Shown here in pieces: positions 49,918 to 63,241 of a DNA stretch of 64,000 nucleotides. Numbering within the stretch: position 1 is the first letter of the stretch; the number at the start of each line of letters is the position of its first letter. This DNA is from Phormidesmis sp. (GTDB lineage: Bacteria; Cyanobacteriota; Cyanobacteriia; Leptolyngbyales; Leptolyngbyaceae). The stretch is taken from NCBI GenBank assembly GCA_965248535.1, contig CBDFJR010000005.1, forward strand, positions 2,368,001-2,432,000, in the 5' to 3' direction. The notes below the pieces were generated by a model. The model saw nothing but the letters and a program-made list of their open reading frames with translations. It was not told the DNA's origin and did no database searches. The position numbers and the translations under genes were made by a program.

Positions 49918-50754
49918 ATGAACATCATCTCACCCACCCCTAACCTAGAGGATATCGAGATTCAGTTGCTCTTAGACGGCATTTATCGCTATTATGGTCA
50001 CGATTTTCGCAACTATGCTGCCGACTCGCTCAAGCGACGCATTCACCGTTTTTTGAACGTAGAGGGGTTCTCAACCATTTCGGCGTTGCAGGCGCAGGTT
50101 TTGCACGATCGGGCTTGTCTCAAGCGGTTCTTAATCAGCCTCACGGTCAACGTGACGGCAATGTTTCGAGATCCCAGCTTTTTTCTCGCCTTTAGAACTC
50201 TGGTGGTGCCGCTCTTGCGAACTTATCCCTTCATTCGCATTTGGCACGCAGGTTGCTCGACCGGACAAGAGGTTTATTCAATGGCGATCGTGCTGCAAGA
50301 AGAAGGGCTTTATCATCGCTGTCGCATCTACGCGACTGACACCAACGAGAGTGTTTTACAAAAAGCAACGCAAGGCATTTTTTCTCTAGAGTTAATGCAA
50401 GAATACACACAATTTTATTTGAAAGCAGGTGGTAAACAAAGTTTCTCAGAATACTATACGGCCGCCTATAATAGCGCCATCTTTCGCGCATCTCTAAGAG
50501 AAAATATTATTTTTTCTCAACACAATTTGGCGACTGATTCATCGTTTAATGAATTCAACGTGATTATTTGCCGCAACGTGTTGATCTATTTCAATCATCT
50601 CCTGCAAGACCATGTTTGCAGTCTGTTTCACAATAGCTTGTGTCCCTTTGGCATTCTGGGTTTAGGGCGACAAGAGTCTCTCAAATTTACCGCTTATGAA
50701 AAGCAATATGAAGAAATTGCTGCGGGTGAAAAGCTTTACCGTCGATCGAGCTAA
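49918..50754 (+). CDS. cheR: CheR-type protein-glutamate methyltransferase
   Basis: VTAMFRDP, IWHAGCSTGQE, CRNVLIYF. Confidence 0.9.
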   Translation: MNIISPTPNLEDIEIQLLLDGIYRYYGHDFRNYAADSLKRRIHRFLNVEGFSTISALQAQVLHDRACLKRFLISLTVNVTAMFRDPSFFLAFRTLVVPLLRTYPFIRIWHAGCSTGQEVYSMAIVLQEEGLYHRCRIYATDTNESVLQKATQGIFSLELMQEYTQFYLKAGGKQSFSEYYTAAYNSAIFRASLRENIIFSQHNLATDSSFNEFNVIICRNVLIYFNHLLQDHVCSLFHNSLCPFGILGLGRQESLKFTAYEKQYEEIAAGEKLYRRSS

Positions 50755-50778
50755 GTCGATTCCCTATTCCTGCTTTCC

Positions 50779-52440
50779 GTGCGATCAGTTCACAGTTCCT
50801 TTCCCTTAGAAAAGCCTATGCAGCCCGACCCAAAAGTAAATATTCTGCTGGTAGACGATCAGCCAGAAAACTTGCTAGCTCTTGAGGCAGTCTTGGCTAA
50901 CTTGGGCAATTTGGTAAGAGCTAACTCTGGGCAAGAAGCACTAAGGCATGTGCTGAGTCAAGACTTTGCTGTGATTTTGATGGATGTGCAAATGCCGGGA
51001 ATGGATGGCTTTGAAACGGCTACACTGATTCGCAATCGCCCGCGATCGCGCCACGTTCCTATTATTTTTCTCACGGCTTTTAGCGCTAGCGATCAGTTGA
51101 TGTTTAAAGGCTATGCGCTGGGAGCCGTTGATTATTTATTTAAACCCATTGACTCTAGCATTCTAATTTCTAAAGTCACTGTATTCGTTGATCTGTTTAA
51201 AAAGACCGAAGCGATGCAGCGACAGTCCGCCCAGCTTGTGGCCATGAATGAAGAACTGCGCCAGAGCGAAGAACGGTTTCGATCGCTGAGTGCTTGCTCT
51301 CCGGTGGGCATTTTTGTAGTGGACTCGGTGGGGCGCTGCACCTATGCCAATCCTCAGTTTCAGGCGATCTGCGGGTTGACCGAAGCTCAGAGTTTAGCAT
51401 CAGGGTGGTTTTCCTCGGTTTGCACTGAAGATCAAGAATCGGCGATCGCTCAGTGGCACGCCTATGTGAGGGAGGGTAGCCACTATTCTGAAGAGATGCG
51501 ATTCTACACGAGCGCCGATGATGCGCCGCGCTGGATGCATGTGCGGTCTAGCCCCATGCTGTCAACTCAAGGCGAACTTTTGGGCTATGTGGGCACGATC
51601 GAAGACATCACTGAGCGCAAACAAGCCGAAGCCACCCGCGCCGAAATGGTGCGTGAACAGATCGCCCGACAGGAAGCGGAAGCCGCTAGCTTGATGAAAG
51701 ACGAGTTTTTGTCCGTGCTTTCTCACGAGTTGAGAACGCCCCTTAACTCTATGCTGGGCTGGGCGCGATTGCTGCGATCGAAGAAAATGGATGAGACCAG
51801 CGTCGCCCGCGCTTTAGCAACGATCGAGCGCAATGCCGAAGCCCAAGCGCGATTGATCGAAGACATTTTAGATATGTCTAAAATCATTCGGGGCAAGCTT
51901 GAGATTAATTATTGTGCGGTGAATCTGATTCACGTTGTTGAGATCGCGATCGATTCGGTGCGTCCGCAGGCTGATCTGAAGTCTATTCAGCTAATCGCCT
52001 CGATCGATCCAACCGTGAGCAAAGTCTGGGGTGACCCGATGCGGTTGCAGCAGGTGCTGCTCAATCTGCTCACCAATGCCATCAAATTTACGCCCAATAA
52101 CGGCACGGTTGAGGTGAAGCTAGCCAAACGACCGAATGAAGAATTTCTTCAGCTTCAGGTCATTGACACGGGCATTGGCATTCGTCCTGACTTTTTGCCT
52201 AGAGTCTTCGATCGGTTTCGGCAAGCCGACAGCAGCACGACGCGATCGTTTGGGGGGTTGGGGCTAGGGTTAGCGATCGTGCGTCACCTCGTCGAACTGA
52301 CTCAAGGCACCATTTATGCAGAAAGCCCTGGCGAAGGCAAAGGTTCCACCTTCACCATCATCTTGCCTCTATGGCAGGGCACCGATCCGCTGCTTAATCG
52401 CTCTCTGTCAGAAGATTTAGAAGGCGCAAATATTAAATGA
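50779..52440 (+). CDS. REC-PAS hybrid histidine kinase (start probably ATG 50818)
   Basis: [34 protein letters not shown]. Confidence 0.92.
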   Translation: MRSVHSSFPLEKPMQPDPKVNILLVDDQPENLLALEAVLANLGNLVRANSGQEALRHVLSQDFAVILMDVQMPGMDGFETATLIRNRPRSRHVPIIFLTAFSASDQLMFKGYALGAVDYLFKPIDSSILISKVTVFVDLFKKTEAMQRQSAQLVAMNEELRQSEERFRSLSACSPVGIFVVDSVGRCTYANPQFQAICGLTEAQSLASGWFSSVCTEDQESAIAQWHAYVREGSHYSEEMRFYTSADDAPRWMHVRSSPMLSTQGELLGYVGTIEDITERKQAEATRAEMVREQIARQEAEAASLMKDEFLSVLSHELRTPLNSMLGWARLLRSKKMDETSVARALATIERNAEAQARLIEDILDMSKIIRGKLEINYCAVNLIHVVEIAIDSVRPQADLKSIQLIASIDPTVSKVWGDPMRLQQVLLNLLTNAIKFTPNNGTVEVKLAKRPNEEFLQLQVIDTGIGIRPDFLPRVFDRFRQADSSTTRSFGGLGLGLAIVRHLVELTQGTIYAESPGEGKGSTFTIILPLWQGTDPLLNRSLSEDLEGANIK

Positions 52441-52814
52441 AGCGCGTTTTGATTATTGACAACGAGCCTCATATTCGAGAAGTGACAAAAATTTGCTTGG
52501 AGACGATCGCTAACTGGGATGTGATCACGGCAAGTTCTGGAAGAGAAGGAATTGCTAAAGCTCAAACTGAACAGCCAGACGCGATTTTGCTGGATGTGAT
52601 GATGCCCGAAATGGACGGCTTAACGACGTTTGCCACCCTTCAAGCTGACGCGGCAACCCAGTTGATTCCAGTGATTTTGTTGACGGCTAAGATGCAGACA
52701 GGAGATCAGCGCCGCTATCGTCAATTGGGAATTAGGGCTACGATCGCTAAACCCTTTGAGCCGCTGAATCTGGCCCAGCAGATCGCCGCCGCGCTGAATT
52801 GGAACCTAAGCTAA
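52437..52814 (+). CDS. single-domain response regulator
   Basis: [20 protein letters not shown]; 4-nt overlap with the kinase. Confidence 0.9.
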   Translation: MKRVLIIDNEPHIREVTKICLETIANWDVITASSGREGIAKAQTEQPDAILLDVMMPEMDGLTTFATLQADAATQLIPVILLTAKMQTGDQRRYRQLGIRATIAKPFEPLNLAQQIAAALNWNLS

Positions 52815-52833
52815 CCGCCATTGCAACAGACCG

Positions 52834-54690
52834 TTAGGCGCGATAGGGCTGGGCTTGAAGTTCAAATAACTCGGCATAGAGACCCTGATGCCGCATTAGA
52901 TCTGGGTGGGTGCCGCTTTCTACAATGCGTCCTTGATCCATCACATAAATGCGATCGGCCATTTTCACCGTCGATAAGCGGTGGCTGATCAAAATCGCCG
53001 ATCGCCCTTTAATCAACTGTCTAAAATTCTCATAGACCACCTCCTCAGCTTTGGCATCTAGGGCACTGGTCGGTTCGTCGAGCACGACCAGTTGCGAATT
53101 GCGTAGAAACGCCCGCGCCAGCGCAATTTTTTGCCACTGTCCTCCACTCAATTCTTCCCCTTGGTGAAACGATCGCCCTAGCCAAGTCTCGTAGCCATCG
53201 GGCAGGGTTTGAATCACCGCATCGGCACCAGAGGCTTTAGCGGCTAACTGAACCTGCGGATCTTGAGGTGGCAACTCCACATTTCCTAGCCAAATATTGG
53301 TGTGGGCAGTGAGGTCATAGCGCACATAGTCCTGAAAGACGACACTGACCTGGCGACGCAAATCGGCGATTTGGAAGTTGCGGACATCGATTCCATCCCA
53401 GGTAATCTGTCCGGCGGTCGGTTCATATAAGCGGCAGAGTAGCTTGATCAGCGTCGTTTTGCCGGAGCCGTTTTCGCCGACGAGTGCCACCACTTCTCCG
53501 GGGCGAATGACTAAATCAATGCCTTGCACTGCCTGCCGTTGGCTGTGAGCATATTGAAAATCAACTTGATGAAACACAATACCCTGCTGCATGGGTTGCG
53601 GCACGGGCCGGGGCTGAACCGGATCAGGAAGCTTGGTTTCTAGATCGAAAAACTCATTGAGGTTGCACAGATACAGATAGTTTTCGTGCATACTAGACAG
53701 CCCGCCGAGTAAGGCTTGCAGCGAGCCTTTACCGCGCTGTAGAGCTTGATGATACAACACGAGATCACCCAGTTTTAGCGCGCCATTGACTGCTTGTAGA
53801 ATAATGAAGCTGTAGAGTGCCAGCATCAATATCGCCCCGATCGCTTGGACACCGATGTAGACTAAAGCCTGTTGCCGATCGATCGCGAGTTTTTCTCGAT
53901 GCAACTGTTTTTGCAATCGCAAGACCCATTCGGTAAAGTAGGGCCCCAAATTGAATAAGCGCAGTTCTTTGGCAAAGCCTGCCGAGGCGACAATGCTTCC
54001 TAAATAGCTGATTTGTCGGTGCATTTGGGTGCTGCGGCGCTCCCATTCATAGCCGATTTTGCCGTATTTAAACTGGGCAAGGAGGGTGGGCAGCGTGGTT
54101 AAAACCAAGGCCGGTAGCGTCACCCAGTGAATCGTGACGAGTAGCCCGATCATGGTGATCAGCGATAGCCCATTTTGCACCAAGGCGGTGGCGGTATACA
54201 TCACATGGGTGGGGCGTTGCACCTCCCGCTGGGCGCGTTGCAGAATATTGTAGTATTCTGTGTTTTCGTAGCATTCAATATCGACGGCGATCGCTTTGGC
54301 ATAGAAGCGTGCCTGCATATATTCGGTGAGTTTGAGTCCTTGCGCTTGGGTCACCCAGTTGTCGAAGGAAGAGCACAAGAGGTTTAACAGTAAGCACCCC
54401 CCCGCCAGTCCGAAGAGTATGGCCAGTTGGGGCATGATGGTGGCCCGATGTGCTGCATCCATGTCTGTTTTGATGCTGATGGTGAGCACATCGACGACCC
54501 ATTTGTTCACATAGAGGCTGGCGAGGGAGAGTCCGCTTTGAAGCAGCAGTAAACTCACATGGATGACTGTCCATTTAGGACTGCTCTGCCAGACCAATTT
54601 TAGGGCAGACAGCGATCGTATGCTGTGGCTTATTTGGCGAGAGAATTGTTTTAGACTACGAATAAACCAACGATTCACGGGCTTAATCAC
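52834..54690 (-). CDS. ABC exporter (TMD + NBD), RiPP-cluster type
   Basis: AKELRLF, GENGSGKTT, LSGGQWQKIALAR, LDEPT; no C39 peptidase domain seen. Confidence 0.92.
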   Translation of the reverse strand: MIKPVNRWFIRSLKQFSRQISHSIRSLSALKLVWQSSPKWTVIHVSLLLLQSGLSLASLYVNKWVVDVLTISIKTDMDAAHRATIMPQLAILFGLAGGCLLLNLLCSSFDNWVTQAQGLKLTEYMQARFYAKAIAVDIECYENTEYYNILQRAQREVQRPTHVMYTATALVQNGLSLITMIGLLVTIHWVTLPALVLTTLPTLLAQFKYGKIGYEWERRSTQMHRQISYLGSIVASAGFAKELRLFNLGPYFTEWVLRLQKQLHREKLAIDRQQALVYIGVQAIGAILMLALYSFIILQAVNGALKLGDLVLYHQALQRGKGSLQALLGGLSSMHENYLYLCNLNEFFDLETKLPDPVQPRPVPQPMQQGIVFHQVDFQYAHSQRQAVQGIDLVIRPGEVVALVGENGSGKTTLIKLLCRLYEPTAGQITWDGIDVRNFQIADLRRQVSVVFQDYVRYDLTAHTNIWLGNVELPPQDPQVQLAAKASGADAVIQTLPDGYETWLGRSFHQGEELSGGQWQKIALARAFLRNSQLVVLDEPTSALDAKAEEVVYENFRQLIKGRSAILISHRLSTVKMADRIYVMDQGRIVESGTHPDLMRHQGLYAELFELQAQPYRA

Positions 54691-54740
54691 TCACAATATC
54701 TGACGAGACTAAAAGAATGGTCGCAATAGACGCTCGATGT

Positions 54741-55715
54741 TCACGACGCAGAGAGTGACAAAGCAGAGTCTATGGGGAATAGTGTGGAAGCATGGGGCGG
54801 TTCGAGCAGCGATCGCAACCCTTGATCGAGCGACCAGCGGGGGCGAAAATTCAACGTCGATCGCGCTAGAACAATGTTGGCTTGGGAGTGTTGAATATCG
54901 CCAGGGCGACGGGCTGCAAATCGAATCGGACTCATTTCACCGGGATGGTTAGCGCGCAGGCATTCCAGCAATTGCAGCAGTGAAATCGCTACACCCGTGC
55001 CAATATTGCAAACTAAAGAGGTGCCAGCAGCGCGATCGATTTCCAACGCTTGCACAAATGCTTGGGCCACATCTTTTACGTAGATAAAATCGCGGGTTTG
55101 TGAGCCATCGCCGTAAATCGTAATCGGTAACCCCTGACTCAGCGCCTGAGAAAATCGCGAAATCACCCCAGAATAAGCCGAATTTGGCGCTTGACGCGGG
55201 CCAAAAACATTAAAGAGCCGCAGACCGACAAAGGCAAATCCGAGCCGATCGGCATACAAGCTGGCGTAGTGCTCACTGGTTAGTTTTTGTAAGCCATAGG
55301 GTGAAATCGGTGTGGTTAAATTGTCTTCTGCGATCAGCCTTGTGGATAAGTTTCCATAAACTGCCGCTGAACTTGTAAACACCAGCTTAGGAATCGACAG
55401 CGCTTGACACAAGCTGATCACCGCGATCGTGGCTGATAGATTATTGTGATGGGTGTGAATCGGATCTGACCAAGATTCACCGACAGATGGCGTTGCAGCT
55501 AGATGGGCTATGCCATCGACTGGACTCAAAAAATCTTCTGGTTGGCAATGCTGAATCTCTTTTTGGAGCACCGACAATGAGGGATGCCGGGGCAAATGCT
55601 TTAGCGTTCCTGTGCGTAAATTGTCCACAACGGTGACACAGTGCCCTTGGGCTAATAGCGCTTCGGTTAAGTGGGAACCAATAAATCCGGCTCCTCCAGT
55701 GACGATGATGTGCAT
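54741..55715 (-). CDS. NAD-dependent nucleotide-sugar epimerase/dehydratase
   Basis: TGGAGFIGSH, SSAAVYG, YGLQK, FNVFGPRQ, TRDFIYV. Confidence 0.92.
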   Translation of the reverse strand: MHIIVTGGAGFIGSHLTEALLAQGHCVTVVDNLRTGTLKHLPRHPSLSVLQKEIQHCQPEDFLSPVDGIAHLAATPSVGESWSDPIHTHHNNLSATIAVISLCQALSIPKLVFTSSAAVYGNLSTRLIAEDNLTTPISPYGLQKLTSEHYASLYADRLGFAFVGLRLFNVFGPRQAPNSAYSGVISRFSQALSQGLPITIYGDGSQTRDFIYVKDVAQAFVQALEIDRAAGTSLVCNIGTGVAISLLQLLECLRANHPGEMSPIRFAARRPGDIQHSQANIVLARSTLNFRPRWSLDQGLRSLLEPPHASTLFPIDSALSLSAS

Positions 55716-55733
55716 TTGGCTCTGTTCCAGTGC

Positions 55734-56792
55734 TTAAACGGTGAGGGATAGCAGCGAGTTTTGGGAAGATAGGATCTGATGACTGAGAGATGCCAAGTCA
55801 TCGGTGATGAGTGTGCAAAGCTGATCTAATTGCTGTAGATCATCAGGACGAGAGAGCAACCGGATCGGGATAGTTTGCGCGATCGCTGCCAATTCCTGTA
55901 GCTCCTGCTGCTGCTGGAGGGGCATGAGAATATCTCGCCCGTAGCTGTGCACTAAAAGATGCTGGAGGGAGGCGATCGCCGAGAGAGGTTGAACGATCGC
56001 GCTGTCACGAGAGGCTTCTCGCGGTTGCAGCACATAAATCGCCGCTAAAGGTAGAGAATGCTCGACAAACCGTTGAGGTAAGCGATCGTGCTCTGGCTGC
56101 AACTCAAAAAAGCATTTATCTAAGCGGCTAAACACCCGCGTGAGCGGTGCAATCGGAACCGTCAGCGCCTGGAGTGAAGGCTGCCACAGTCGCAGTGCTG
56201 GGTAGCCCGGTTGCACCCAAATCTGATCCTTGATGCTGTGCAGAGCGGCAATATCATCGGTCAGGGCCGCATATCCGCGCATCGCTAAAGCGGCGGCGGT
56301 GGTCGATTTGCCTGCACCAGATGCTCCGATTAGCGCGATCGCTTGTCCCTGAATTTTGACGACGCTGGCGTGTAAACAGAGTGTTCCTCGCAGCCGCAGC
56401 ACATGCCCCAGCACGCCACCGAGCAGCATTGAAACGGCATCCTGAAACAGGTGTTCTGCTGACCAAAAGCCCCAAACTCGATCGCCTGTCGGATGAATCA
56501 CAAATTCCAGAACGTCATCGTGCTCGACCGATCGCAGCCGCCAATAGGTGCCCTCTGCGGTCTCGGTTTGCCAGAGACAAAAGCCTGCCTGCTGTTCATC
56601 TGCTGTTGTTACTTGCCAAAACCGATGCTCTAGCAGGGGATGATCTAGCGTGGGTGCGCCAACAAATTCTACTGTCACCGTTGACGTTTTAGACGGCAGT
56701 GAATGGGTGGGTGTTAAACCGGGGAGGAATCGATTGGAGACTAGGCTCAAACCATAGACGGTATAGCAAGAATTGTCCTCTAGATTCTGCAT
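55734..56792 (-). CDS. HPr-kinase-like RiPP kinase (lasso-cluster type)
   Basis: YTVYGL start, LHASVV, Walker A GASGAGKST, LTDD, PGYPALRLW; start MQNLED (56792) preferred. Confidence 0.85.
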   Translation of the reverse strand: MQNLEDNSCYTVYGLSLVSNRFLPGLTPTHSLPSKTSTVTVEFVGAPTLDHPLLEHRFWQVTTADEQQAGFCLWQTETAEGTYWRLRSVEHDDVLEFVIHPTGDRVWGFWSAEHLFQDAVSMLLGGVLGHVLRLRGTLCLHASVVKIQGQAIALIGASGAGKSTTAAALAMRGYAALTDDIAALHSIKDQIWVQPGYPALRLWQPSLQALTVPIAPLTRVFSRLDKCFFELQPEHDRLPQRFVEHSLPLAAIYVLQPREASRDSAIVQPLSAIASLQHLLVHSYGRDILMPLQQQQELQELAAIAQTIPIRLLSRPDDLQQLDQLCTLITDDLASLSHQILSSQNSLLSLTV

Positions 56793-56916
56793 TGGCAATT
56801 CAACAGTAGATAAACATAAAATCGGCAGTTTGCTGCAACATAGGTGAGCGATCGTTTCAGGCGATCGCTCACCTATTCTCAAACTTGGCTCAATCTATAA
56901 TCAAGCTCGACTAAGC

Positions 56917-57093
56917 TCACGTCGTCGAGGGGAAGGTGGTATTTGTGGTACTGTTAGTAGTCCCGACCGTAGGACTCATACCTGTCGTCATGGGACTACC
57001 ACTGCCCCCGCCGCTTTGGGTCAGTCCAGCGATCGTGCCATGGGCCTCGAACACTGGTGATTCGTAGTCTTTTTGATGATCATTCATAGTCAT
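56917..57093 (-). CDS. RiPP precursor peptide with lasso-type leader and Ser/Thr-rich core (not in ORF track)
   Basis: MTMNDHQKDYESPVFEAHGTIAGLTQ|SGGGSGSPMTTGMSPTVGTTNSTTNTTFPSTT*; YxxPx(F)xxxG-x5-T(-2) leader motif; AAGGAG RBS at 57097-57102; alternative start ATG 57087. Confidence 0.85.
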   Translation of the reverse strand: MTMNDHQKDYESPVFEAHGTIAGLTQSGGGSGSPMTTGMSPTVGTTNSTTNTTFPSTT

Positions 57094-57205
57094 GAACTCC
57101 TTTGTTGGGTAAATAGTGTGAGCAGATGCACCCTGAAACTTTTAGCTGAGAACAAATGAAGCGGTTCTTTCCCATAACATTAGGATGTGGGTCAAGTGAC
57201 TGATC

Positions 57206-58435
57206 TCAGGCGGTTAAACTCAATGATTTATCGGCATGGCCGCGCTGTTTGATTTGACAAAGCCGATCGCAGGCGTTGAGAAAAAGCTGCTTAAATCGCG
57301 ATTCATCAAACTGATCGACCATCAGTTGGCGGGCTTGTGCGAGATGGTCGCGTCGCGCTTCGGGTGGTTGGTTTACCACTTGCACGATCGCTGCTGCCAA
57401 TGCTTCTGGATTCTCCGGCGGCGCTAAGGTGCAGACCTCCGGCACAAACGTACCATGATAGGCTTTTAAATCGACACTAATCACCTCACACTCACAGGCG
57501 ATCGCTTCAATCAACGTCGAGGGAAAGGCATCGGTGTAGGGATAGCTGATCACCACATCCGACAGGTTATAAATAGTTGGCATCCAGAGATGGGGAAAGT
57601 AAGGTAAAAATCGGAGGCGATCGGTGAGTTGGTATTCCTCGGCTCGCGCTTCAATTCGATTTCTCATCTCTTGTTGTTCTTTCTGAGGGGCGCGCCCCAT
57701 CACCAAAAAAACCATTGCTGTAGGTTTTGTTAGCTGGGGATAGGCTAACTGATAGGCATGAAAGATATCATCATGTTTGTAGAGCGCTGCCCAACCACGT
57801 GGCGACATAATCACCGTAGTCTCTTCGGGGAGCCGCAACACATCGCGTTTCCACTGTGCCACATTGCGGGTAGTGCCCCGGCAAAATAGCTGGGTTTTGG
57901 TGCCGATCGGAATCAGTTCAACCCGACCATCAGCAGGCATCAAGGCTTGCGCTGGCTCCAGTAGCTGCGGGGTTTCCACAATCAAGGTATCTGTATTTGC
58001 AAGCACAAATTCTGCTAACTCGCTCTGTTCCCTATTGATCTGATTTAGGAGCATATAATTCAGAAACCCCCAAGCGGATACAACGAGCGGTCGCACCCCC
58101 GCTAAGACACAACTGCGAGCGTGCCAATTGATCGCATTGACATGCACCACATCGGGCTGGAACTCGTCGAACAATGCTCGAATGCGCGGTGCCATGTCGA
58201 TCGCCATCTGATGGTCATCAAAGGTGCCACCGGGATTATCATCGTTTTCTAAGTGCCACTGACTCGGAACATAGCGGTAATTTGCGGGGGGATTGCCTTC
58301 ATAAAAATCTGCATCGCCCAGCAGACAGACGTGATGCCCAGCCTCAATGAGCCAACGCAGGGGACGCTCTGCCGCAGTGCCCCCACAGGAAACAACTAGA
58401 ATTCGCATGGGATTAGTCCTGACTATAAATCTCAC
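57206..58435 (-). CDS. GT-B (GT4-like) glycosyltransferase
   Basis: MRILVV, FQPDVVHVN, SAWG, SPRG, DAFPSTLIEAIAC, ENPEALAAAI. Confidence 0.88.
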   Translation of the reverse strand: MRFIVRTNPMRILVVSCGGTAAERPLRWLIEAGHHVCLLGDADFYEGNPPANYRYVPSQWHLENDDNPGGTFDDHQMAIDMAPRIRALFDEFQPDVVHVNAINWHARSCVLAGVRPLVVSAWGFLNYMLLNQINREQSELAEFVLANTDTLIVETPQLLEPAQALMPADGRVELIPIGTKTQLFCRGTTRNVAQWKRDVLRLPEETTVIMSPRGWAALYKHDDIFHAYQLAYPQLTKPTAMVFLVMGRAPQKEQQEMRNRIEARAEEYQLTDRLRFLPYFPHLWMPTIYNLSDVVISYPYTDAFPSTLIEAIACECEVISVDLKAYHGTFVPEVCTLAPPENPEALAAAIVQVVNQPPEARRDHLAQARQLMVDQFDESRFKQLFLNACDRLCQIKQRGHADKSLSLTA

Positions 58436-58460
58436 TAGCGCGGATAGAGTTCACGCCTGC

Positions 58461-58784
58461 TTAAATACTGTTGTCTTCAGTGCTGTGGAGTTCGACAACG
58501 CCCGCTTCTAGCCATTGGGTGACTAAGCTCATCAAGTCTGCCTGTAGGCGCTCTGGCTCTACTGCATACTCTTCTAACAATGTTTTGTAGGCAGATTCGA
58601 TCGAGGCTGCTTGAGTGAGCGCAGAGAGCATCTGGGTCGCGATCGTGTTTTGGCTAAAGTAAACTTCAGTGGTCATATTCAACAATGCCGATTCGCCCGA
58701 CATATCTTGTATCAAAACCTGGGGAGACAAGACTATTTTTTGAGCGGATGAGATTTGCGGTGCCAGGGAATCAGTACTCAACAT
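58461..58784 (-). CDS. PqqD-family RiPP recognition element (lasso B1)
   Basis: GESALLNMTTEVYFSQN...LLEEYAVEPERLQADLMSLVTQWLEAGVV. Confidence 0.88.
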   Translation of the reverse strand: MLSTDSLAPQISSAQKIVLSPQVLIQDMSGESALLNMTTEVYFSQNTIATQMLSALTQAASIESAYKTLLEEYAVEPERLQADLMSLVTQWLEAGVVELHSTEDNSI

Positions 58785-59136
58785 AATGTAGTCAACGAAG
58801 TCGATAGTGATCTATATCTAAGCTCTTCAGGGAGTTTAACAGTCATCCGACAGTGAGGTTCTAAGGTTTACGGAAATTAGTTATTTCTCTATGAAGTTTA
58901 AAGTCTTATCTTCTGTTTGAGCGATTTCTGGTCTTGTGAGGTATACATGAACACTGCGGTTCTGTTGCACAAACATGGCTACTTAGGTTACGCCGCAGGG
59001 ATAATCGGGGTTTCCTAAGAGCTTATATGAACGTATCTAAAACATTTGGCCCTTGCTTTTTAAAGATAGACAATGTGATTGTGACAGATGATCGAGTTGT
59101 CTCAGGCAATGGAGGTGAAAATTTGTGAGTGTTCAG

Positions 59137-59619
59137 TTACGAGAGTGATTTAGAAAAGGCGCTAAACTGTTGATGGACATCAGGGCGATCGTTCAACACT
59201 AGCTCCTCATACTCGATCCAGGCGTGGGCACAAAATGTTCCGTGTTCTCGCTGCACCCCAATTCGCACAGTTGTTTTGACCCCCTGACAGCGGAGCAAAA
59301 ACCAGAGCACCAGCGATCGTTTTAAGCAGTTACCCCAAATGCTCGATCGGGCGGCTAGATTCACGATTTGAGCGATGTGCTGCAACTGAGATAACTCGGT
59401 TGGCGGTCTAATAGGGCATCGTGCCGTCAGCCAATCGAGCCAGCATTGCGTCTGCTGCAACCCTCTGAGAGATAAACAGCACGACACGATCGGCAACAAC
59501 AAAAAGGCTTGCAAAAAGAGCGTGCGATCGCATGGAGGAAGCGCCATCCAGAGGTGTCCTTTACGAAAAAGTCGCTGCATGGGAATCATGACAAAGAGGT
59601 TGCTGAAACGATCAAACAT
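59137..59619 (-). CDS. lasso B2-type leader peptidase (transglutaminase-like)
   Basis: NCLKRSLVL catalytic Cys, RIGV, AHAWIE. Confidence 0.9.
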   Translation of the reverse strand: MFDRFSNLFVMIPMQRLFRKGHLWMALPPCDRTLFLQAFLLLPIVSCCLSLRGLQQTQCWLDWLTARCPIRPPTELSQLQHIAQIVNLAARSSIWGNCLKRSLVLWFLLRCQGVKTTVRIGVQREHGTFCAHAWIEYEELVLNDRPDVHQQFSAFSKSLS

Positions 59620-59702
59620 TGACTTGTTTATTGTACAATATTTTGCGTAAATATCCGGATCGATTCAGCGATCTGAAGTAATACAGATCACTACCTTAAC
59701 AG

Positions 59703-60938
59703 TTGCTCTTTCAGGGTTTCAATTTGATGGATCTTTCTTCTTTGACTCAAGGCTGTAGTGCTGAAGCTAATTTCTTGCTTGCCTGTGTCCGGCTCTATTG
59801 CAGACCCTCAGGCGCAGCAGAGATGAGATTGAATCTCGATGCTGTGAATTGGTCAAAACTGATCGAAATCGCCCACTTCAACAGCGTCATCCCGATTTTG
59901 CACAACAGTTTGAACGCGATCGCATCTCCCCATGTTCCCCCCGATATACTCACTGATCTTTCTGAAGCAACTCGTGCAAACAGCCACCTCAATCTGCTGC
60001 GTGCTAAAGAACTGCTCTGCCTGGTAGCGTGCCTAAAAAAACAAGGTATTGATGTCATTCCTTTTAAAGGACTGGTCTTAGCAGAAGTTGCTCATGGCAA
60101 TTTAGCGATGCGGCAATTTGGCGATTTGGATTTGTTAGTTCGTGATCAAGATTTTTGGCAAGCAAAGGCTGCTTTAATGGCTCAGGGATATTGCACCGAA
60201 ACAACCGCGATCGAAGAAGCGATCGGCTTTCGGCGCTACTGTCAAATTTCTTTGTCTAACTCAGCCCGATCGAGCAGTTTAGATCTGCACTGGGGCATTC
60301 CACCCCGGCGATTTTGGCATCGCGATCGCACCCCCACTCTTTGGCAAAATTTGCAGACCCGATCGCTAGCAGGACAGACCATTCAAACCTTTTCGATCGA
60401 GGTGATGTTAGTCATCCAAGCTATTAATGCGGTCAAAGAACCCCAGCGGCGGCCGGCTCTAAAACAGGTTTGTGATTTAGCAAAACTGATTCACGCTTAC
60501 CCAACCTTAGATTGGGAGCGAGTCTGGGAGATAGCAGGTGAACTCCGGGTTCAGACACTGTTGCTGATTAGTCTCAGTCTGGTACATCAACTCCTACAAG
60601 TGTCTCTTCCTAAAGAGATTCAAGCTGAAATTGCCAAAAATAAACGCATAGAAGCGATCGCCCGCCGAGTCAATCAACAAGTTGTTGCCAAAATCGATAC
60701 GCCATCTGAGAGTTGTGACCGATGGTGGTCAGAATATTGGTATCAGCTTAAAACCCTCGATCGAGGCTGGCATGGGGGAGTGATGATCTTACAAGAGTTG
60801 GGCATCAGGCTGATCGAGATTGGCAGGCGGATGACTCCTAATGAGCACGATTTACAGATGGTATCTCTGCCCGCTTCTCTGCATTTTGTCTACTACTTTT
60901 TGCGCGTTTTGAGAGTGGCGAGTAAATATCTCTCTTAG
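59703..60938 (+). CDS. nucleotidyltransferase (NTP_transf_5 type, lasso-cluster associated)
   Basis: IPFKGLVLA...RQFGDLDLLV, LDLHW, LDWERV. Confidence 0.88.
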   Translation: MLFQGFNLMDLSSLTQGCSAEANFLLACVRLYCRPSGAAEMRLNLDAVNWSKLIEIAHFNSVIPILHNSLNAIASPHVPPDILTDLSEATRANSHLNLLRAKELLCLVACLKKQGIDVIPFKGLVLAEVAHGNLAMRQFGDLDLLVRDQDFWQAKAALMAQGYCTETTAIEEAIGFRRYCQISLSNSARSSSLDLHWGIPPRRFWHRDRTPTLWQNLQTRSLAGQTIQTFSIEVMLVIQAINAVKEPQRRPALKQVCDLAKLIHAYPTLDWERVWEIAGELRVQTLLLISLSLVHQLLQVSLPKEIQAEIAKNKRIEAIARRVNQQVVAKIDTPSESCDRWWSEYWYQLKTLDRGWHGGVMILQELGIRLIEIGRRMTPNEHDLQMVSLPASLHFVYYFLRVLRVASKYLS

Positions 60939-61115
60939 CTTCCTACGGGCTTTTTTGGCACAATCAGGGGCTGTGTCGCCCATTATGAATACAGGAAAAA
61001 AGTTCAGCATTTGGACATCCTGCTCTTGACGACTATTGAGATTGAGTAGACTTTACGATCGTGCCATTCCCAATGTACTAATCTGGAGATCACAACGTCC
61101 TTATCTGTTCGGCTC

Positions 61116-62435
61116 ATGACTGTCTCAAAACCCGCTTCAAATTCCGTTGGTGACCTCTCGCTGGCTGCGTTGGCGCAAAAAACTCAGACGGCTGCTCGTC
61201 ATTTAGCCACGCAACCCACCGAGGTGAAAAATCGGGCGATCGCTGCCATCGCTGATGCTCTAGAAGCCAACAGTGCCGAAATTCTCGCTGCCAATGCCGC
61301 AGACTGTGAAGCAGCCAAACTAGCGGGAATCGCCCCCGCTCTCTATGCGCGACTGAAGCTTGACGAAGCGAAATTGAAGGGAGCGATCGCTGGGGTGCGT
61401 GATGTGGGCAAGTTGGCAGACCCGATCGGGGTCATTCAACTCGATCGCGAATTGGATGAAGGGCTGATTCTCAAGCGAGTCACTTGCCCGTTAGGGGTGC
61501 TAGGCGTGATTTTTGAGGCGCGACCCGATGCCGTGATGCAGATTTCGAGTTTGGCGATTAAGTCAGGAAACGGCGTGATTCTCAAAGGTGGCAAAGAGGC
61601 GATTCAGTCTTGCGAAGCTTTGGTGACAGCGATTCATCAAGGGTTAGCGCAAACAGAAATTGATCCATCAGTGGTGCAACTTTTAACTACGCGAGAAGAA
61701 ACGCTAGAGTTATTAAAACTCGATCACTTTGTGGATTTAATTATTCCGAGAGGATCAAATTCATTTGTGCAATTTGTGCAAAATAATACGAAAATTCCGG
61801 TGTTAGGACACGCTGAAGGAATTTGTCATCTATATGTCGATCGCACTGCTGACATTCAGAAAGCAATCAAAATCACAATAGATTCTAAAACTCAATATCC
61901 GGCTGCTTGCAACGCGATCGAGACTCTGATTGTGCATCAAGCGATCGCGTCAGAGTTTTTGCTAGAAGCGGTCTCTGCACTGCAAGCTAAGAATGTGGAA
62001 TTACGGGGAGATGAACGCGCTCGTGAAATTCTCAATATCGCTGCTGTGACAGACTTGGATTGGGTGACTGAATACAGCGACTTGATTTTAGCGATTAAAA
62101 TTGTGGATTCTTTAGAAGGCGCGATCGCCCATATCAATACCTATGGGTCACGACATACAGAAGCGATCGTGACTGAAGATTCAACATCGGCTCAAACCTT
62201 TCTAGCTCAAGTCGATGCGGCGGGGGTCTACCACAACTGTTCGACTCGTTTTGCAGATGGGTTTCGCTATGGCTTTGGCGCAGAAGTGGGCATCAGCACC
62301 CAAAAAATGCCCCCTCGCGGCCCCGTCGGCTTAGAAGGACTCGTCACCTACAAATATCAGCTAGTGGGCAACGGGCATATTGCTGCAACCTATACGGGAA
62401 GTCATGCTAAACCCTTCACTCATCGGGATTTATAG
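61116..62435 (+). CDS. proA: glutamate-5-semialdehyde dehydrogenase
   Basis: [50 protein letters not shown]. Confidence 0.96.
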
Positions 62436-62443
62436 GTCGCTAA

Positions 62444-63241
62444 ATGTTTGATAACATCTGCAAATTTCTTGCCGAAACCTTCTCGGCTGATTTCGCCACT
62501 TGGCTGCTGGGCGAACCTATTGAGCTAACTGAACTCAGCCCGTCAGAACTCTCACTCGAACCGATCCGCGCCGACGCGCTAATTTTGCTGCAATCTGACG
62601 AAGTGGTTTTGCATTTAGAGTTTCAGTCGCAGCCTAAAGCTGATATCCCGTTTCGGATGGTAGATTATCGGCTGAGAGTCCATCGTCGCTTTCCCAAAAA
62701 GCAGATGCGCCAAGCCGTGATTTATCTACAGTTCACTAAGTCTGATCTCGTGCAGCAAAGCGCGTTTACCTTGGAAAAAACTCGCCATGAGTTTGAGGTG
62801 ATCCGACTCTGGGAGCAGCCAACGAGTGCCTTTCTGCAATCTCCAGGCTTGCTTCCTTTTGCAGTTTTAAGTCAGGCAAGCAATCGGACTCAAACGCTCC
62901 GGCATGTAGCTCAAATCATTGATCAAATGCCTGACCCACGGGCACAAAGTAATGTTTTGGCATCGACCTTTGTTCTGGCTGGTTTAGTATTGGAATCAGA
63001 GGTCGTTCAGCAAGTGTTGCGGAGAGACATTATGCAAGAGTCAGTCACTTATCAGCTTATTAAGTCAGAGGGTCGGGAAGAGGGTCGGGAAGAGGGTCGG
63101 GAAGAGGCGAGACAAGAGACTTTGCGACAGATTGTTGCGAATCTGTCGAGAGAAGGAATGTCTTCTGATGCGATCGCTCGAATTACGGGCTTGACGATCG
63201 AGCAACTTCAGCAGATTCAAACGGCGATCGACCCATCATAA
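62444..63241 (+). CDS. Rpn-family recombination-promoting nuclease/putative transposase
   Basis: MFDNICKFLAE, IRADALILL, HLEFQ, C-terminal EEGR repeats and IARITGL. Confidence 0.85.
   Translation: MFDNICKFLAETFSADFATWLLGEPIELTELSPSELSLEPIRADALILLQSDEVVLHLEFQSQPKADIPFRMVDYRLRVHRRFPKKQMRQAVIYLQFTKSDLVQQSAFTLEKTRHEFEVIRLWEQPTSAFLQSPGLLPFAVLSQASNRTQTLRHVAQIIDQMPDPRAQSNVLASTFVLAGLVLESEVVQQVLRRDIMQESVTYQLIKSEGREEGREEGREEARQETLRQIVANLSREGMSSDAIARITGLTIEQLQQIQTAIDPS
63068..63107 (+). repeat. 12-nt tandem repeat GAGGGTCGGGAA x3 (EGRE)
   Basis: Read directly; typical of Rpn C-termini. Confidence 0.85.

Follow-up and report, generated by a model that had tools for sequence, protein, structure and literature searches.

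A cyclase-free, lasso-type gene cluster of Phormidesmis sp. predicted to direct a linear peptide decorated with phosphate and sugar

Lasso-type machinery without a macrolactam cyclase has a described precedent in Bacillota, where lppA-K-B-S-D-N clusters direct the linear polyphosphorylated peptides (LPPs) with an RRE, a kinase of HprK-like type, an NTP transferase plus a pump that is MsbA-like (Popov et al., Nat Commun 2026;17:6633, PMC13381572; published May 2026). According to that report, LPPs are polyphosphorylated on core Ser3 by the kinase LppK; no activity was seen for the LPP nucleotidyltransferase, and in the authors' suspicion LppN depends on a partner whose gene is not part of the core cluster. 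They place LPP clusters within capsular polysaccharide loci, raise a role in biofilms and call the family restricted to Bacillota; the supplements hold a single cyanobacterial entry, an RRE labelled 'lasso'. Among peptides that do have a cyclase, pseudomycoidin carries a phospho-hexose on Ser installed by PsmK and PsmN (PMC9266682).

We analyzed a 64,000-nucleotide stretch of the Phormidesmis sp. genome, here called the window. An initial annotation had read positions 52834-60938 as a lasso-type cluster without a cyclase whose machinery may make an exported, non-lasso, phosphorylated and glycosylated peptide. Every gene that it named is present according to ORF, Pfam and NCBIfam analysis; its picture is corrected in that the nucleotidyltransferase gene is found on the other strand and diverges from that of the B2 peptidase. 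The genes and their flanks are as follows:

52437-52814, + strand: response regulator (flank)
52834-54690, - strand: MsbA-like ABC exporter, permease plus ATPase without a peptidase domain, 618 aa
54741-55715, - strand: NAD-dependent sugar 4-epimerase/dehydratase (GalE-like SDR), 324 aa
55734-56882, - strand: HprK-like peptide kinase, longest ORF 382 aa
56917-57093, - strand: precursor peptide, 58 aa
57206-58435, - strand: GT4 (GT-B, group 1) glycosyltransferase, 409 aa, directly downstream of the RRE gene
58461-58784, - strand: discrete PqqD-family RRE, lasso B1-like, 107 aa
59137-59619, - strand: lasso-type B2 leader peptidase (transglutaminase-like Cys protease), 160 aa
59703-60938, + strand: PF14907 (NTP_transf_5) nucleotidyltransferase, 411 aa, divergent from B2
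61116-62435, + strand: proA (flank; 560 bits)

An NCBIfam search also places an Rpn-family transposase-like gene 1.5 kb from the cluster.

The cluster shares with those of paeninodin (PadeK) and pseudomycoidin (PsmK/PsmN) the B1 and B2 proteins, the PF14907 nucleotidyltransferase, the ABC exporter, an HprK-like kinase with His-Lys-Asp-Asp residues and a YxxPxL leader with Thr at -2; it differs from them in having no cyclase, no Asp/Glu acceptor and no C-terminal Ser as kinase target, and in its additional GT4. The RRE, the single PqqD match in the whole genome (Pfam, 40.5 bits), scores below the cut-offs of the lasso PqqD chaperone models NF033530 and NF033536 (36.9 and 35.7 bits) and weakly matches three lasso RREs of solved structure, 9x90, TbiB1 and TfuB1. 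B2, also encoded once in the genome, exceeds the NF033537 cut-off (80.4 bits against 33; Transglut_core3, 76.4 bits); Cys98 and His132 (AHAW) are kept in all eight aligned B2s, and its closest relative is the B2 of a cyclase-bearing locus (L044, 38.6% identity). A Pfam search of the cluster detected no S26/S24 peptidase domain. The kinase falls slightly below the Pfam cut-off for Hpr_kinase_C (29.9 bits against 33.3; E 4.9e-7) and is 47-49% identical to its Nostocaceae orthologues, and the 12 kinases aligned all keep the His, the GxGKS P-loop and Asp-Asp. HPr-rel-A systems (TIGR04352, HprK-related kinase A) likewise combine an HprK-like kinase and a PqqD-family partner without a cyclase; membership of the window kinase was rejected, since it scored 40 bits where the cut-off is 200. 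Alignment with relatives suggests that translation of the kinase probably starts about 30 codons inside the longest ORF, near codon 31, and that of GT4 probably about nine codons inside.

GT4 matches Glycos_transf_1 (60.6 bits) and GT4 N-terminal domains in Pfam, shares 48-52% identity with the GT4 found behind the RRE in each of the related loci, and has the generic GT-B enzymes Tll1590, MshA and PimA as its nearest solved proteins. The epimerase (Pfam Epimerase, 188.2 bits; TIGR01179 galE, 188.6 bits against a cut-off of 262) is 62-65% identical to that of ten of the 13 complete Nostocaceae loci, and the nucleotidyltransferase (NTP_transf_5, 177.9 bits, covering profile positions 2-248 of 249) is 27-32% identical to its equivalents in cyclase-free and cyclase-bearing loci alike. 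The exporter (ABC_tran, 117.5 bits; ABC_membrane, 25.7 bits) has MsbA TIGR02203 as its top NCBIfam match, at 299 bits and under that model's cut-off, and shares 49-53% identity with its counterparts in the cyclase-free loci of Nostocaceae.

In the precursor gene an AGGAG ribosome-binding site lies 4 nt upstream of the ATG, and nothing else in the 64-kb window matches the leader pattern. The precursor's leader, ...DYESPVFEAHGTIAGLTQ, has a YxxPxF motif with Thr at -2 and weakly matches NF033528, the lasso_cyano leader model, at E 0.0037; among 5.8 billion proteins the precursor matched only itself. The 32-residue core, SGGGSGSPMTTGMSPTVGTTNSTTNTTFPSTT, contains 17 Ser and Thr and no Asp or Glu, which bears out the earlier observation that the acceptor residue is missing. 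Together with 29 Nostocaceae precursors it makes a set of 30 from 15 loci (24 distinct cores of 13-32 aa, rich in Ser, Thr, Gly and Pro) in which a lasso-type leader (YxxPxL...T at -2) is followed by a core of the form xxGGS5G...T10T11. Gly3-Gly4 and Ser5 occur in 30/30 and TT at positions 10-11 in 29/30, with four TT pairs beyond Thr10-Thr11 in the window core. The comparison drawn at first with kinases that act on a C-terminal Ser does not hold, since none of the 30 precursors ends in Ser.

No Asn_synthase match was found among the ORFs of the cluster, and its gaps amount to 113 bp and 353 bp only, leaving no room for a gene of about 600 aa, so that the cluster is indeed without a lasso cyclase. 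The whole-genome search suggested with the initial annotation gave the same answer: in this genome, 99.76% complete, no lasso cyclase was found; of the five PF00733 matches, the two substantial ones are AsnB-like, unlinked to the cluster, and have asparagine synthase TIGR01536 as best NCBIfam match. On the cyanobacterial lasso-cyclase model NF033535 these two score 53.5 and 115+44 bits, whereas eight cyclases from kinase-bearing cyanobacterial lasso loci, used for calibration, have it as their top match at 286-1073 bits. It is very improbable that the product is still a lasso-like or cyclic peptide closed by a cyclase encoded elsewhere or by an unrecognized enzyme of the cluster, although the 53.5-bit homologue, on contig C2, is a GATase-less paralogue of 611 aa that adjoins a divergent ABC exporter, canonical lasso cyclases occur elsewhere in two cluster-bearing genomes (G162 and G032), and 13 of the 30 cores contain an Asp or Glu somewhere. 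The window core has neither residue, and at positions 7-9 they are absent from all 30. The C2 paralogue has orthologues (48-65% identity) in 24 of 200 other cyanobacterial genomes, of which at least seven contain no homologue of the kinase, and G032 carries the cyclase-free cluster but not this paralogue; the paralogue is therefore not tied to the pathway. The cyclases of G162 and G032 lie beside their own second kinase gene, and no ATP-grasp, YcaO, radical-SAM or other cyclizing enzyme was found in the window cluster by Pfam.

A search of other genomes, likewise suggested at the outset, retrieved 14 Nostocaceae loci (13 complete, one cut by a contig end) that keep the tailoring genes and lack both cyclase and acceptor. 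Their common gene set is RRE-GT4-precursor(s)-kinase-GT2-epimerase-B2-ABC-nucleotidyltransferase, their flanking genes differ from one locus to another, and one more cyclase-free locus of the same architecture comes from metagenomes. The 14 loci are closely related to one another (end branches of 0.004-0.11 in the kinase tree), so that independent support comes from about two deep lineages, that of the window and that of Nostocaceae. The search for close relatives of the window's own version found none, the next kinase in rank being 49% identical, and its B2 and nucleotidyltransferase belong to another lineage and position than those of Nostocaceae, which makes the two versions mosaics.

A lasso cluster in decay, with the cyclase recently lost, the other genes drifting and no product made, could explain the erosion seen in some loci: the epimerase is reduced to remnants in L054, L062 and L067 (three of the 13 complete loci), in L067 the ABC gene is also split and the NTP gene shortened, and L064 consists of RRE and GT4 only, beside a group II intron reverse transcriptase. 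It could also draw on the transposase-like gene near the window cluster and on the weak constraint on B2, whose dN/dS (0.33-0.47) is the highest. Even so, pairwise dN/dS for RRE, GT4, kinase, GT2, epimerase, B2, ABC and NTP, over pairs with unsaturated dS, is 0.08-0.47, and so under 0.5 throughout; a pattern of most orthologues carrying frameshifts or stops was not seen; and all eight genes of the window cluster are full-length with intact catalytic motifs in Pfam searches and alignments, as had been stated for the leader-processing and tailoring genes. The cyclase-free architecture is common to two lineages whose kinases are just 47-49% identical, and the 30 precursors carry a conserved new core motif instead of degraded lasso cores. 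We consider decay highly unlikely and the window cluster probably a functional RiPP cluster and not a wreck.

In the kinase tree, a branch with support 91/80 has the 15 cyclase-free kinases on one side, and their neighbors are the kinases of cyclase-bearing cyanobacterial lasso loci. Such kinase-bearing lasso clusters (L044-L049 and L051) are also the closest sequence relatives of the window cluster (kinase 33-38%, RRE up to 48%, ABC 37-46% and NTP 27-32% identity) and have leaders of the same type; in contrast to the window cluster they encode a cyclase and no RRE-adjacent GT4, and four of the six precursors found in them (none in L048) have Asp/Glu at positions 7-9 (D8, E7, D9 and D9). The window cluster thus probably descends from kinase-bearing cyanobacterial lasso clusters, with loss of macrolactam formation.

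With a probability of roughly 0.6, judged from sequence, the window cluster makes a linear, exported peptide decorated with phosphate and sugar, by machinery of lasso descent that has lost macrolactam formation; the reading first given to the locus is supported. Gene content and conservation are what we observe, and from them we infer the chemistry. No RNA run was found to contain the stretch, which speaks neither for nor against the scheme. The discrete RRE would bind the 58-aa precursor by its YxxPx(L/F) leader, and the HprK-like kinase would phosphorylate a core Ser, possibly several times; by analogy with LppK on core Ser3, the best candidate site is the invariant Ser5 of GGSG. GT4, assigned to the peptide and not to another acceptor by its adjacency to the RRE, would O-glycosylate Thr, with Thr10-Thr11 as the prime site and a UDP-sugar epimer supplied by the epimerase as donor. 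The PF14907 enzyme may place a hexose or nucleotide on the phosphate, as PsmN does in pseudomycoidin, after which B2 would cut off the leader behind Thr-Gln and the MsbA-like pump would export the product.

In a variant of this scheme, which we regard as unlikely, the linear phosphopeptide carries its sugar on Ser only, GT4, GT2 and the epimerase building or extending the sugar started by the PF14907 enzyme, or making its donor, while Thr stays untouched. The hexoses of pseudomycoidin do sit on phosphorylated Ser (PMC9266682), the outside partner suspected for LppN (PMC13381572) would fit, and the two glycosyltransferases of the Nostocaceae clusters are as expected for chain extension. However, Thr10-Thr11 is conserved as much as Ser5, and RRE-GT4 adjacency recurs without a kinase or PF14907 in other Cyanobacteria and in Chloroflexi, beside small ORFs whose leader has [Y/W]xxP and whose cores contain TT, so that GT4 needs no phosphoserine primer there.

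The decorated peptide might instead be no free natural product and serve as primer or anchor of a cell-surface glycan or sheath component, which we hold to be rather improbable. The exporter is MsbA/HepA-like, a kind that moves glycolipids and polysaccharide, the Ser/Thr/Gly/Pro-rich cores resemble mucin-type linkers, and the capsular setting of LPPs and the biofilm role raised for them (PMC13381572) point the same way. Against this, the window cluster is flanked by signalling genes and proA in place of polysaccharide genes, the flanks of the Nostocaceae loci vary, and B2 is kept, which argues for release of a short core. Glycocins employ a SunS-type GT2, are not known to need an RRE, have disulfide-bearing helix-loop-helix cores and depend on a peptidase-ABC transporter for cleavage; the window cluster has none of these traits and is set apart from them by this description. 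Like the proposed product, glycocins are described in a review as ribosomal peptides with sugars on Ser, Thr or Cys.

Among known systems, LPPs as reported (PMC13381572) are the closest. Both families lack a macrolactam cyclase and have a discrete RRE, a kinase that is HprK-like, a PF14907-type NTP transferase, an MsbA-like exporter, one to three precursors per cluster and, instead of a C-terminal Ser, a conserved Ser soon after the cleavage site; both occur in some genomes alongside a canonical kinase-bearing lasso cluster (here G162 and G032). The LPP leader YxxPxVLxHQxIxFETxxS has the same spacing of Y1, P4, hydrophobic 6, H9, I12 and T16 as YSEPELKAHGKISGLTQ and YESPVFEAHGTIAGLTQ, whereas the conserved leader Thr is at -1 in LPPs and would be at -2 in the cyanobacterial family. 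Unlike LPPs, which use a SipW-like signal peptidase, the cyanobacterial family has the lasso B2 cysteine protease, a GT4 that always adjoins the RRE, GT2 and an epimerase as further members of the cluster, and short cores (13-32 aa) with GGSG...TT. The concept of a cyclase-free linear peptide is no longer new given the Bacillota LPPs, and the 'candidate class' initially proposed was overstated in its novelty. The window cluster is in effect a cyanobacterial, B2-dependent, glycosyltransferase-equipped counterpart of LPPs; what distinguishes it from them, as published, is the phylum (Cyanobacteriota instead of Bacillota), B2 in place of the SipW-like peptidase, and an RRE-adjacent GT4 with Thr-Thr cores.

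The cluster at 52834-60938 is best described as a cyanobacterial, B2-dependent and glycosyltransferase-bearing relative of the linear polyphosphorylated peptide (LPP) clusters, which the available part of their description presents as cyclase-free, from Bacillota and found via a SipW-like signal peptidase (Popov et al., Nat Commun 2026;17:6633, PMC13381572). The gene content listed in the initial annotation was borne out by an ORF listing with Pfam and NCBIfam scans, as were the response regulator and proA that bound it:

59703-60938, (+), PF14907 (NTP_transf_5) nucleotidyltransferase, 177.9 bits, divergent from B2
59137-59619, (-), B2 leader peptidase, NF033537, 80.4 bits against a cut-off of 33
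gap of 353 bp between B2 and RRE, in (-) strand order
58461-58784, (-), PqqD-type RRE, PqqD, 40.5 bits
57206-58435, (-), GT4 glycosyltransferase, after the RRE
56917-57093, (-), precursor of 58 aa, between GT4 and kinase
55734-56882, (-), HprK-like kinase, after the precursor
54741-55715, (-), GalE-like epimerase, after the kinase
52834-54690, (-), MsbA-like ABC exporter, last in transcription order

Both leader-handling components of a lasso pathway are present, the RRE (B1) and B2, at 40.5 and 80.4 bits, the latter with Cys98 and His132 conserved. The Pfam scan gave no Asn_synthase match in the cluster ORFs, and the intergenic gaps are too small to hold such a gene; the B2-RRE gap contains only ORFs of 28-31 aa, none with a leader motif, and is treated as a putative promoter region. 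Promoter and terminator scans of 52400-61200 returned 4 and 5 sites against 8.5 and 8.6 in shuffles and, lying below the shuffles, are uninformative. Searches of solved structures gave no match for the nucleotidyltransferase or B2, P-loop/HprK fragments only for the kinase, and weak matches to lasso RREs for the RRE; a sequencing-run search with the whole cluster listed four DNA-type runs and no RNA run, which has no bearing on expression. Next to the exporter, an operon-like row of genes (49918-52814, (+)) reaches to 20 bp from the stop codon of the exporter gene; it encodes a CheR methyltransferase, a hybrid PAS histidine kinase whose N-terminus carries a receiver domain, and a response regulator consisting of a single domain. 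On the other side, proA is immediately followed, 1.5 kb off the cluster, by a gene for an Rpn-family recombination-promoting nuclease/putative transposase (62444-63241, (+); TIGR01784, 118 bits).

A kinase search of 401 genomes of the phylum gave a match in 33. The four best matches (46-47% identity, full length), all from one family, come from 20-kb loci whose genes share one strand and one order, namely RRE, GT4, two precursors, kinase, GT2 with a TPR tail, epimerase, B2, ABC exporter and PF14907 nucleotidyltransferase; the flanks of these loci are mutually unrelated, and ~10 kb to each side of them gave no Asn-synthase/cyclase match. Kinases of the next tier (33-38% identity, BLASTP, full length) belong to lasso clusters of canonical make-up, which contain cyclase, B2, RRE, exporter and PF14907 (loci L044-L049 and L051). 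A pattern scan derived from the GT4 alignment across 185,579 species genomes retrieved 22 loci, none with a cyclase match; the set is complete in 13 of them, found in Nostoc, Desmonostoc, Cylindrospermum, Anabaena and two uncultured cyanobacteria, and one more is interrupted by a contig end, all of these counts being lower bounds because the scan rests on two peptide patterns. A metagenome scan added one complete and one truncated locus and re-found two known ones. Two Nostocaceae genomes with a cyclase-free cluster also hold a canonical lasso cluster with its own kinase (G162:C24:34665-38718 and G032:C71:23957-27695; cyclase scores of 937 and 620+204 bits), which mirrors the co-occurrence of LPPs and paeninodins reported in Bacilli in the portion of the literature at hand. 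A minimal locus, L050:9516-11492 (G125:C4), consists of an HprK-like kinase, two lasso-type precursors with the cores AISIVDVFRGRTAAS and AGENDGADFDNLGS, both with C-terminal Ser, and a B2; no RRE, cyclase or exporter was found within 10 kb of it, its flanks are housekeeping genes, and its genome has three further kinase matches.

An AGGAG site lies 4 nt ahead of the ATG of the window precursor, and a homologous-protein search with the 58-aa peptide matched only itself. Its leader, DYESPVFEAHGTIAGLTQ, contains YxxPxF and then a penultimate Thr; the lasso leader motif [Y/W]xxPx[L/V/I/F] with penultimate Thr, as defined in the available text of PMC13381572 and PMC10368454, is found as YESPVFEAHGTIAGLTQ in the window and as YSEPELKAHGKISGLTQ in its relatives. 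The core, SGGGSGSPMTTGMSPTVGTTNSTTNTTFPSTT, has 32 residues, 17 of them Ser or Thr, and no Cys; it also contains no acidic residue at all, in line with the initial annotation, which gave the acceptor residue as missing. A leader-pattern scan collected 30 precursors from 15 loci (each locus having between one and three, with 24 distinct cores of 13-32 residues), with a leader that is nearly invariant (YSEPELKAHGKISGLTQ in 21 of the 30). Gly3-Gly4 and Ser5 occur in every core, Gly6 in 29 and Thr10-Thr11 in 29, the remaining one having Ser-Thr, and the tails past core position 11 are variable. Homologous loci, to which the initial annotation had looked for a decision, thus include cyclase-free relatives in which none of the 30 precursors has Asp/Glu at core positions 7-9; C-terminal Ser is likewise found in none. 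The acceptor is present in four of six precursors from cyclase-bearing loci (D8 in L044, E7 in L047, D9 in L049 and L051), and the L044 and L046 precursors, which belong to the nearest kinases, have the C-terminal Ser that the accessible text of PMC9266682 gives as the paeninodin-type kinase target. The family has therefore swapped the lasso core for a new conserved platform, GGSG...TT, with no Asp/Glu at positions 7-9. Loss of cyclase and acceptor could also mark a lasso cluster in decay; we consider this very improbable, since replacement of the core by a conserved platform is the opposite of decay.

The genome of the window (G000; 5.03 Mb, 99.76% complete) gave five matches to PF00733, three of which fall in two genes of contig C2; the remaining pair are short, weak matches, scoring 25.6 and 21.9 bits over 59 and 81 profile positions. 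Both C2 homologues are AsnB-like, with asparagine synthase TIGR01536 as best NCBIfam match. Against the cyanobacterial lasso-cyclase model NF033535 they score 115+44 bits (AsnB-like gene) and 53.5 bits (611-aa paralogue), compared with 286-1073 bits for a calibration set of eight Asn-synthase homologues located beside kinase homologues in cyanobacterial lasso loci; NF033535 was the top match for all eight, and this best-hit criterion was used in place of the curated cut-off of 525 bits because just three of them clear the latter. The only B2 and the only PqqD gene of the genome are both inside the cluster. From these comparisons, which answer the genome-wide search proposed in the initial annotation, it is concluded that the genome probably encodes no lasso cyclase, and a cyclase that acts in trans or is of an unrecognised type is given very little weight. 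The AsnB-like gene (G000:C2:944908-946468; L008:8891-10598) encodes an amidotransferase with a GATase domain and is split into overlapping frames of 453 and 129 aa. In other cyanobacteria each orthologue occupies one ORF of 574-605 aa, and the split reflects either a frameshift or a mistake in the assembly. The paralogue (G000:C2:1349687-1351519; L007:8685-10520) has no detectable GATase (glutaminase) domain and adjoins a 207-aa membrane protein and a divergent ABC exporter. Among 200 other cyanobacterial genomes sampled, 24 contain an orthologue (48-65% identity), in most cases ~5 kb from the AsnB-like gene; at least 7 of those 24 genomes have no kinase homologue, and G032 has a cyclase-free cluster and lacks the paralogue. 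The paralogue is not tied to this pathway, and the idea that it forms, with its exporter, the missing half of a split lasso cluster was rejected on its TIGR01536 best match and its distribution across genomes.

The cluster is real and conserved. Pairwise dN/dS (NG86) over five Nostocaceae locus pairs is 0.08-0.18 for the RRE, 0.15-0.21 for GT4, 0.14-0.25 for the kinase, 0.23-0.36 for GT2, 0.20 for the epimerase, 0.33-0.47 for B2, 0.13-0.17 for the ABC exporter (two pairs, three being saturated) and 0.20-0.37 for PF14907 (three computable pairs, two being saturated). Cys98 and His132, which we take to be the catalytic Cys and His, are invariant in all eight aligned B2s. All 12 aligned kinases share an invariant His, GxGKS and Asp-Asp, and His-Lys-Asp-Asp is the kinase residue set named in the available text of a review (PMC9266682). 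A kinase tree of 23 rows places 15 cyclase-free kinases on one side of a branch (ultrafast bootstrap 91, SH-aLRT 80), with the window, on a long branch, as the sister of a tightly clustered Nostocaceae group (100/99) and with the nearest other kinases coming from cyclase-bearing loci; rooted solely by the chosen outgroup, it is consistent with, and short of proof for, a single origin of the cyclase-free kinases. As the Nostocaceae loci are close kin, the independent evidence amounts to about two deep lineages.

The two versions of the cluster are mosaics. The window B2 is nearest to that of the cyclase-bearing L044 (38.6%) and only ~25% identical to the Nostocaceae B2, which is ~50% identical to the B2s of L048 and L049, and in the window B2 and PF14907 lie at the other end of the cluster from where they lie in Nostocaceae. 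Both lineages have thus kept B2 through rearrangement, which speaks for a need to remove the leader. Between locus L058 and loci L057, L062 and L065, dN is 0.33 for the ABC exporter and 0.54-0.60 for PF14907 against 0.07-0.09 for RRE-GT4-kinase, a divergence suggesting that the ABC-PF14907 end was replaced by recombination in some Nostocaceae clusters. Erosion is seen as epimerase remnants in 3 of 13 loci and, in L067, as a split exporter gene and a shortened PF14907 gene. Just the RRE and GT4 of the cluster remain in a Nostoc MAG (L064:9709-11188), probably as a remnant after deletion; they are flanked at one end by a group II intron reverse transcriptase and a Ser-Thr kinase and at the opposite end by dapF/hfq.

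The cluster has in common with LPP clusters a stand-alone RRE, a kinase of the HprK-like type, an NTP transferase and an exporter resembling MsbA in the absence of a cyclase. In the part of Popov et al. (PMC13381572) available, LppK loads core Ser3 with as many as four phosphates, the peptidase cleaves behind Thr(-1), deletion of the NTP transferase caused no change, and LPPs and paeninodins are regarded as confined to Bacillota; a term search of its six supplementary files returned a single cyanobacterial item, an RRE labelled 'lasso'. The LPP leader YxxPxVLxHQxIxFETxxS in that text and the cyanobacterial leader agree in spacing at Y1, P4, position 6 (hydrophobic), H9, I12 and T16, but the latter lacks Q10, F14, E15 and the Ser at T+3, the conserved Ser being at T+6 instead. 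The LPP guide gene, a signal peptidase I of archaeal type (SipW-like LppS), is replaced by B2, and no signal-peptidase domain was found in the cluster ORFs of the window or the Nostocaceae loci. Lasso clusters share B1, B2 and the leader motif with the window, but not the cyclase or the core Asp/Glu at 7-9. The HPr-rel-A model (TIGR04352) gives the window kinase 40 bits against an equivalog cut-off of 200. Glycocins have a SunS-type GT2, a Cys-rich helix-loop-helix core and a peptidase-containing ABC transporter, whereas the window cluster has a GT4 and no GT2, a Cys-free core and an ABC exporter without a peptidase domain. The central idea of the initial annotation, a decorated peptide made without a cyclase, therefore stands but was anticipated in print by the LPPs, to judge from the available text of PMC13381572, and the candidate new class becomes a relative of a known one. 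New here are the phylum, the retention of B2, the presence of GT4, GT2 and epimerase within the cluster, and the GGSG...TT core; no published cyanobacterial version was found in the openly accessible literature searched.

We propose the following pathway, to which as a whole we assign a probability of roughly 0.6. The RRE would bind the leader, as is the property of its family and as the intact motif suggests; the kinase would phosphorylate Ser5, by analogy with LppK; GT4 would glycosylate Thr10/11 and further TT sites with a UDP-sugar presumably supplied by the epimerase; and PF14907 may extend the phosphate with a hexose or nucleotide, by analogy with PsmN of pseudomycoidin. B2 would then cleave after Thr-Gln, following the Thr(-2) rule, and the ABC pump would export the product. 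A linear, leader-dependent and cyclase-free product is considered highly likely; Thr O-glycosylation by GT4, proposed because of the recurring RRE-GT4 adjacency and the invariant Thr10-Thr11, is an evenly balanced prediction. Attachment of sugars to phosphoserine only is judged unlikely, and use of the peptide as a glycan primer or anchor in place of a free product quite unlikely.

GT4 follows the RRE by ~20-30 bp in every member of the cyclase-free family, and the pair also occurs without the kinase, PF14907 or B2 in other Cyanobacteria and in Chloroflexi. Kinase-free loci of the type RRE-GT4-GT34-like, also with a GT2/GT4 fusion, are found in Pannus brasiliensis (L066:9639-12610), a Microcoleaceae MAG (L069:6170-11224) and a metagenome contig (L078:3995-9218); their precursors have a lasso-like leader followed by three to five tandem TPQTTAK-type repeats, and the loci look like a separate, undescribed putative glycopeptide RiPP family. 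In Chloroflexi (Anaerolineae/Caldilineales; L073:6232-13670, L080, L081, L082 and L083), GT4-GT4-RRE (PqqD) is followed by a conserved small ORF, ...KWQEPAILVERSLTA..., with a leader-like KWQEP(A/K)(I/V)L and a C-terminal ...FGP(L/F)S-TT tail; next in L073 is a gene for a C25 (gingipain-type) peptidase of 1296 aa, a possible candidate for leader removal. Because the regex scan of metagenome loci required TT in the ORF, its matches are not independent evidence for a TT association, the unbiased cases being L066, L069 and L073, found without the filter. A complex prediction for GT4 (alignment A4) and RRE (A3) scored 0.10 against a mark of 0.32, which is no evidence either way. Tentatively, the RRE-GT4 pair might be the class-defining core of an undescribed ribosomal O-glycopeptide family, in which a PqqD-type RRE would present precursors with [Y/W]xxP leaders to a dedicated GT4 that glycosylates Thr-Thr. 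Such a core would occur in three settings. Pannus and Microcoleaceae-type cyanobacteria would have it alone, together with TPQTTAK-repeat precursors; Chloroflexi would have it as GT4-GT4-RRE, the precursors there being of the ...FGP(L/F)S-TT kind; and in the window and Nostocaceae it would be fused with a lasso-derived kinase/nucleotidyltransferase/B2/exporter module. The fused version would be expected to yield a linear peptide with two kinds of decoration (phospho- and glyco-), unlike every RiPP characterised so far.

LPPs have been known only since 2026 and, in the available account, only from Bacillota, where they are defined by the SipW-like peptidase. The cyanobacterial clusters suggest that the same evolutionary move, in which the cyclase is dropped from a phosphorylating lasso pathway and leader recognition is kept, was made in Cyanobacteria too, here with the original lasso B2 peptidase retained. 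Their glycosyltransferases lie inside the cluster and are not scattered in a capsule locus, so that these clusters are compact, self-contained test cases for the nature of the mature product, the role of PF14907 and the possible guidance of a GT4 to a peptide by an RRE. If such guidance exists, RRE-dependent O-glycosylation would join RiPP enzymology, and genome mining would gain a new handle. The tails, short and hypervariable and set behind a constant GGSG...TT platform, look suited to engineering. For the RiPP field, the family offers a compact route to the end product of this pathway type and possibly a new RRE-dependent glycosylation chemistry.
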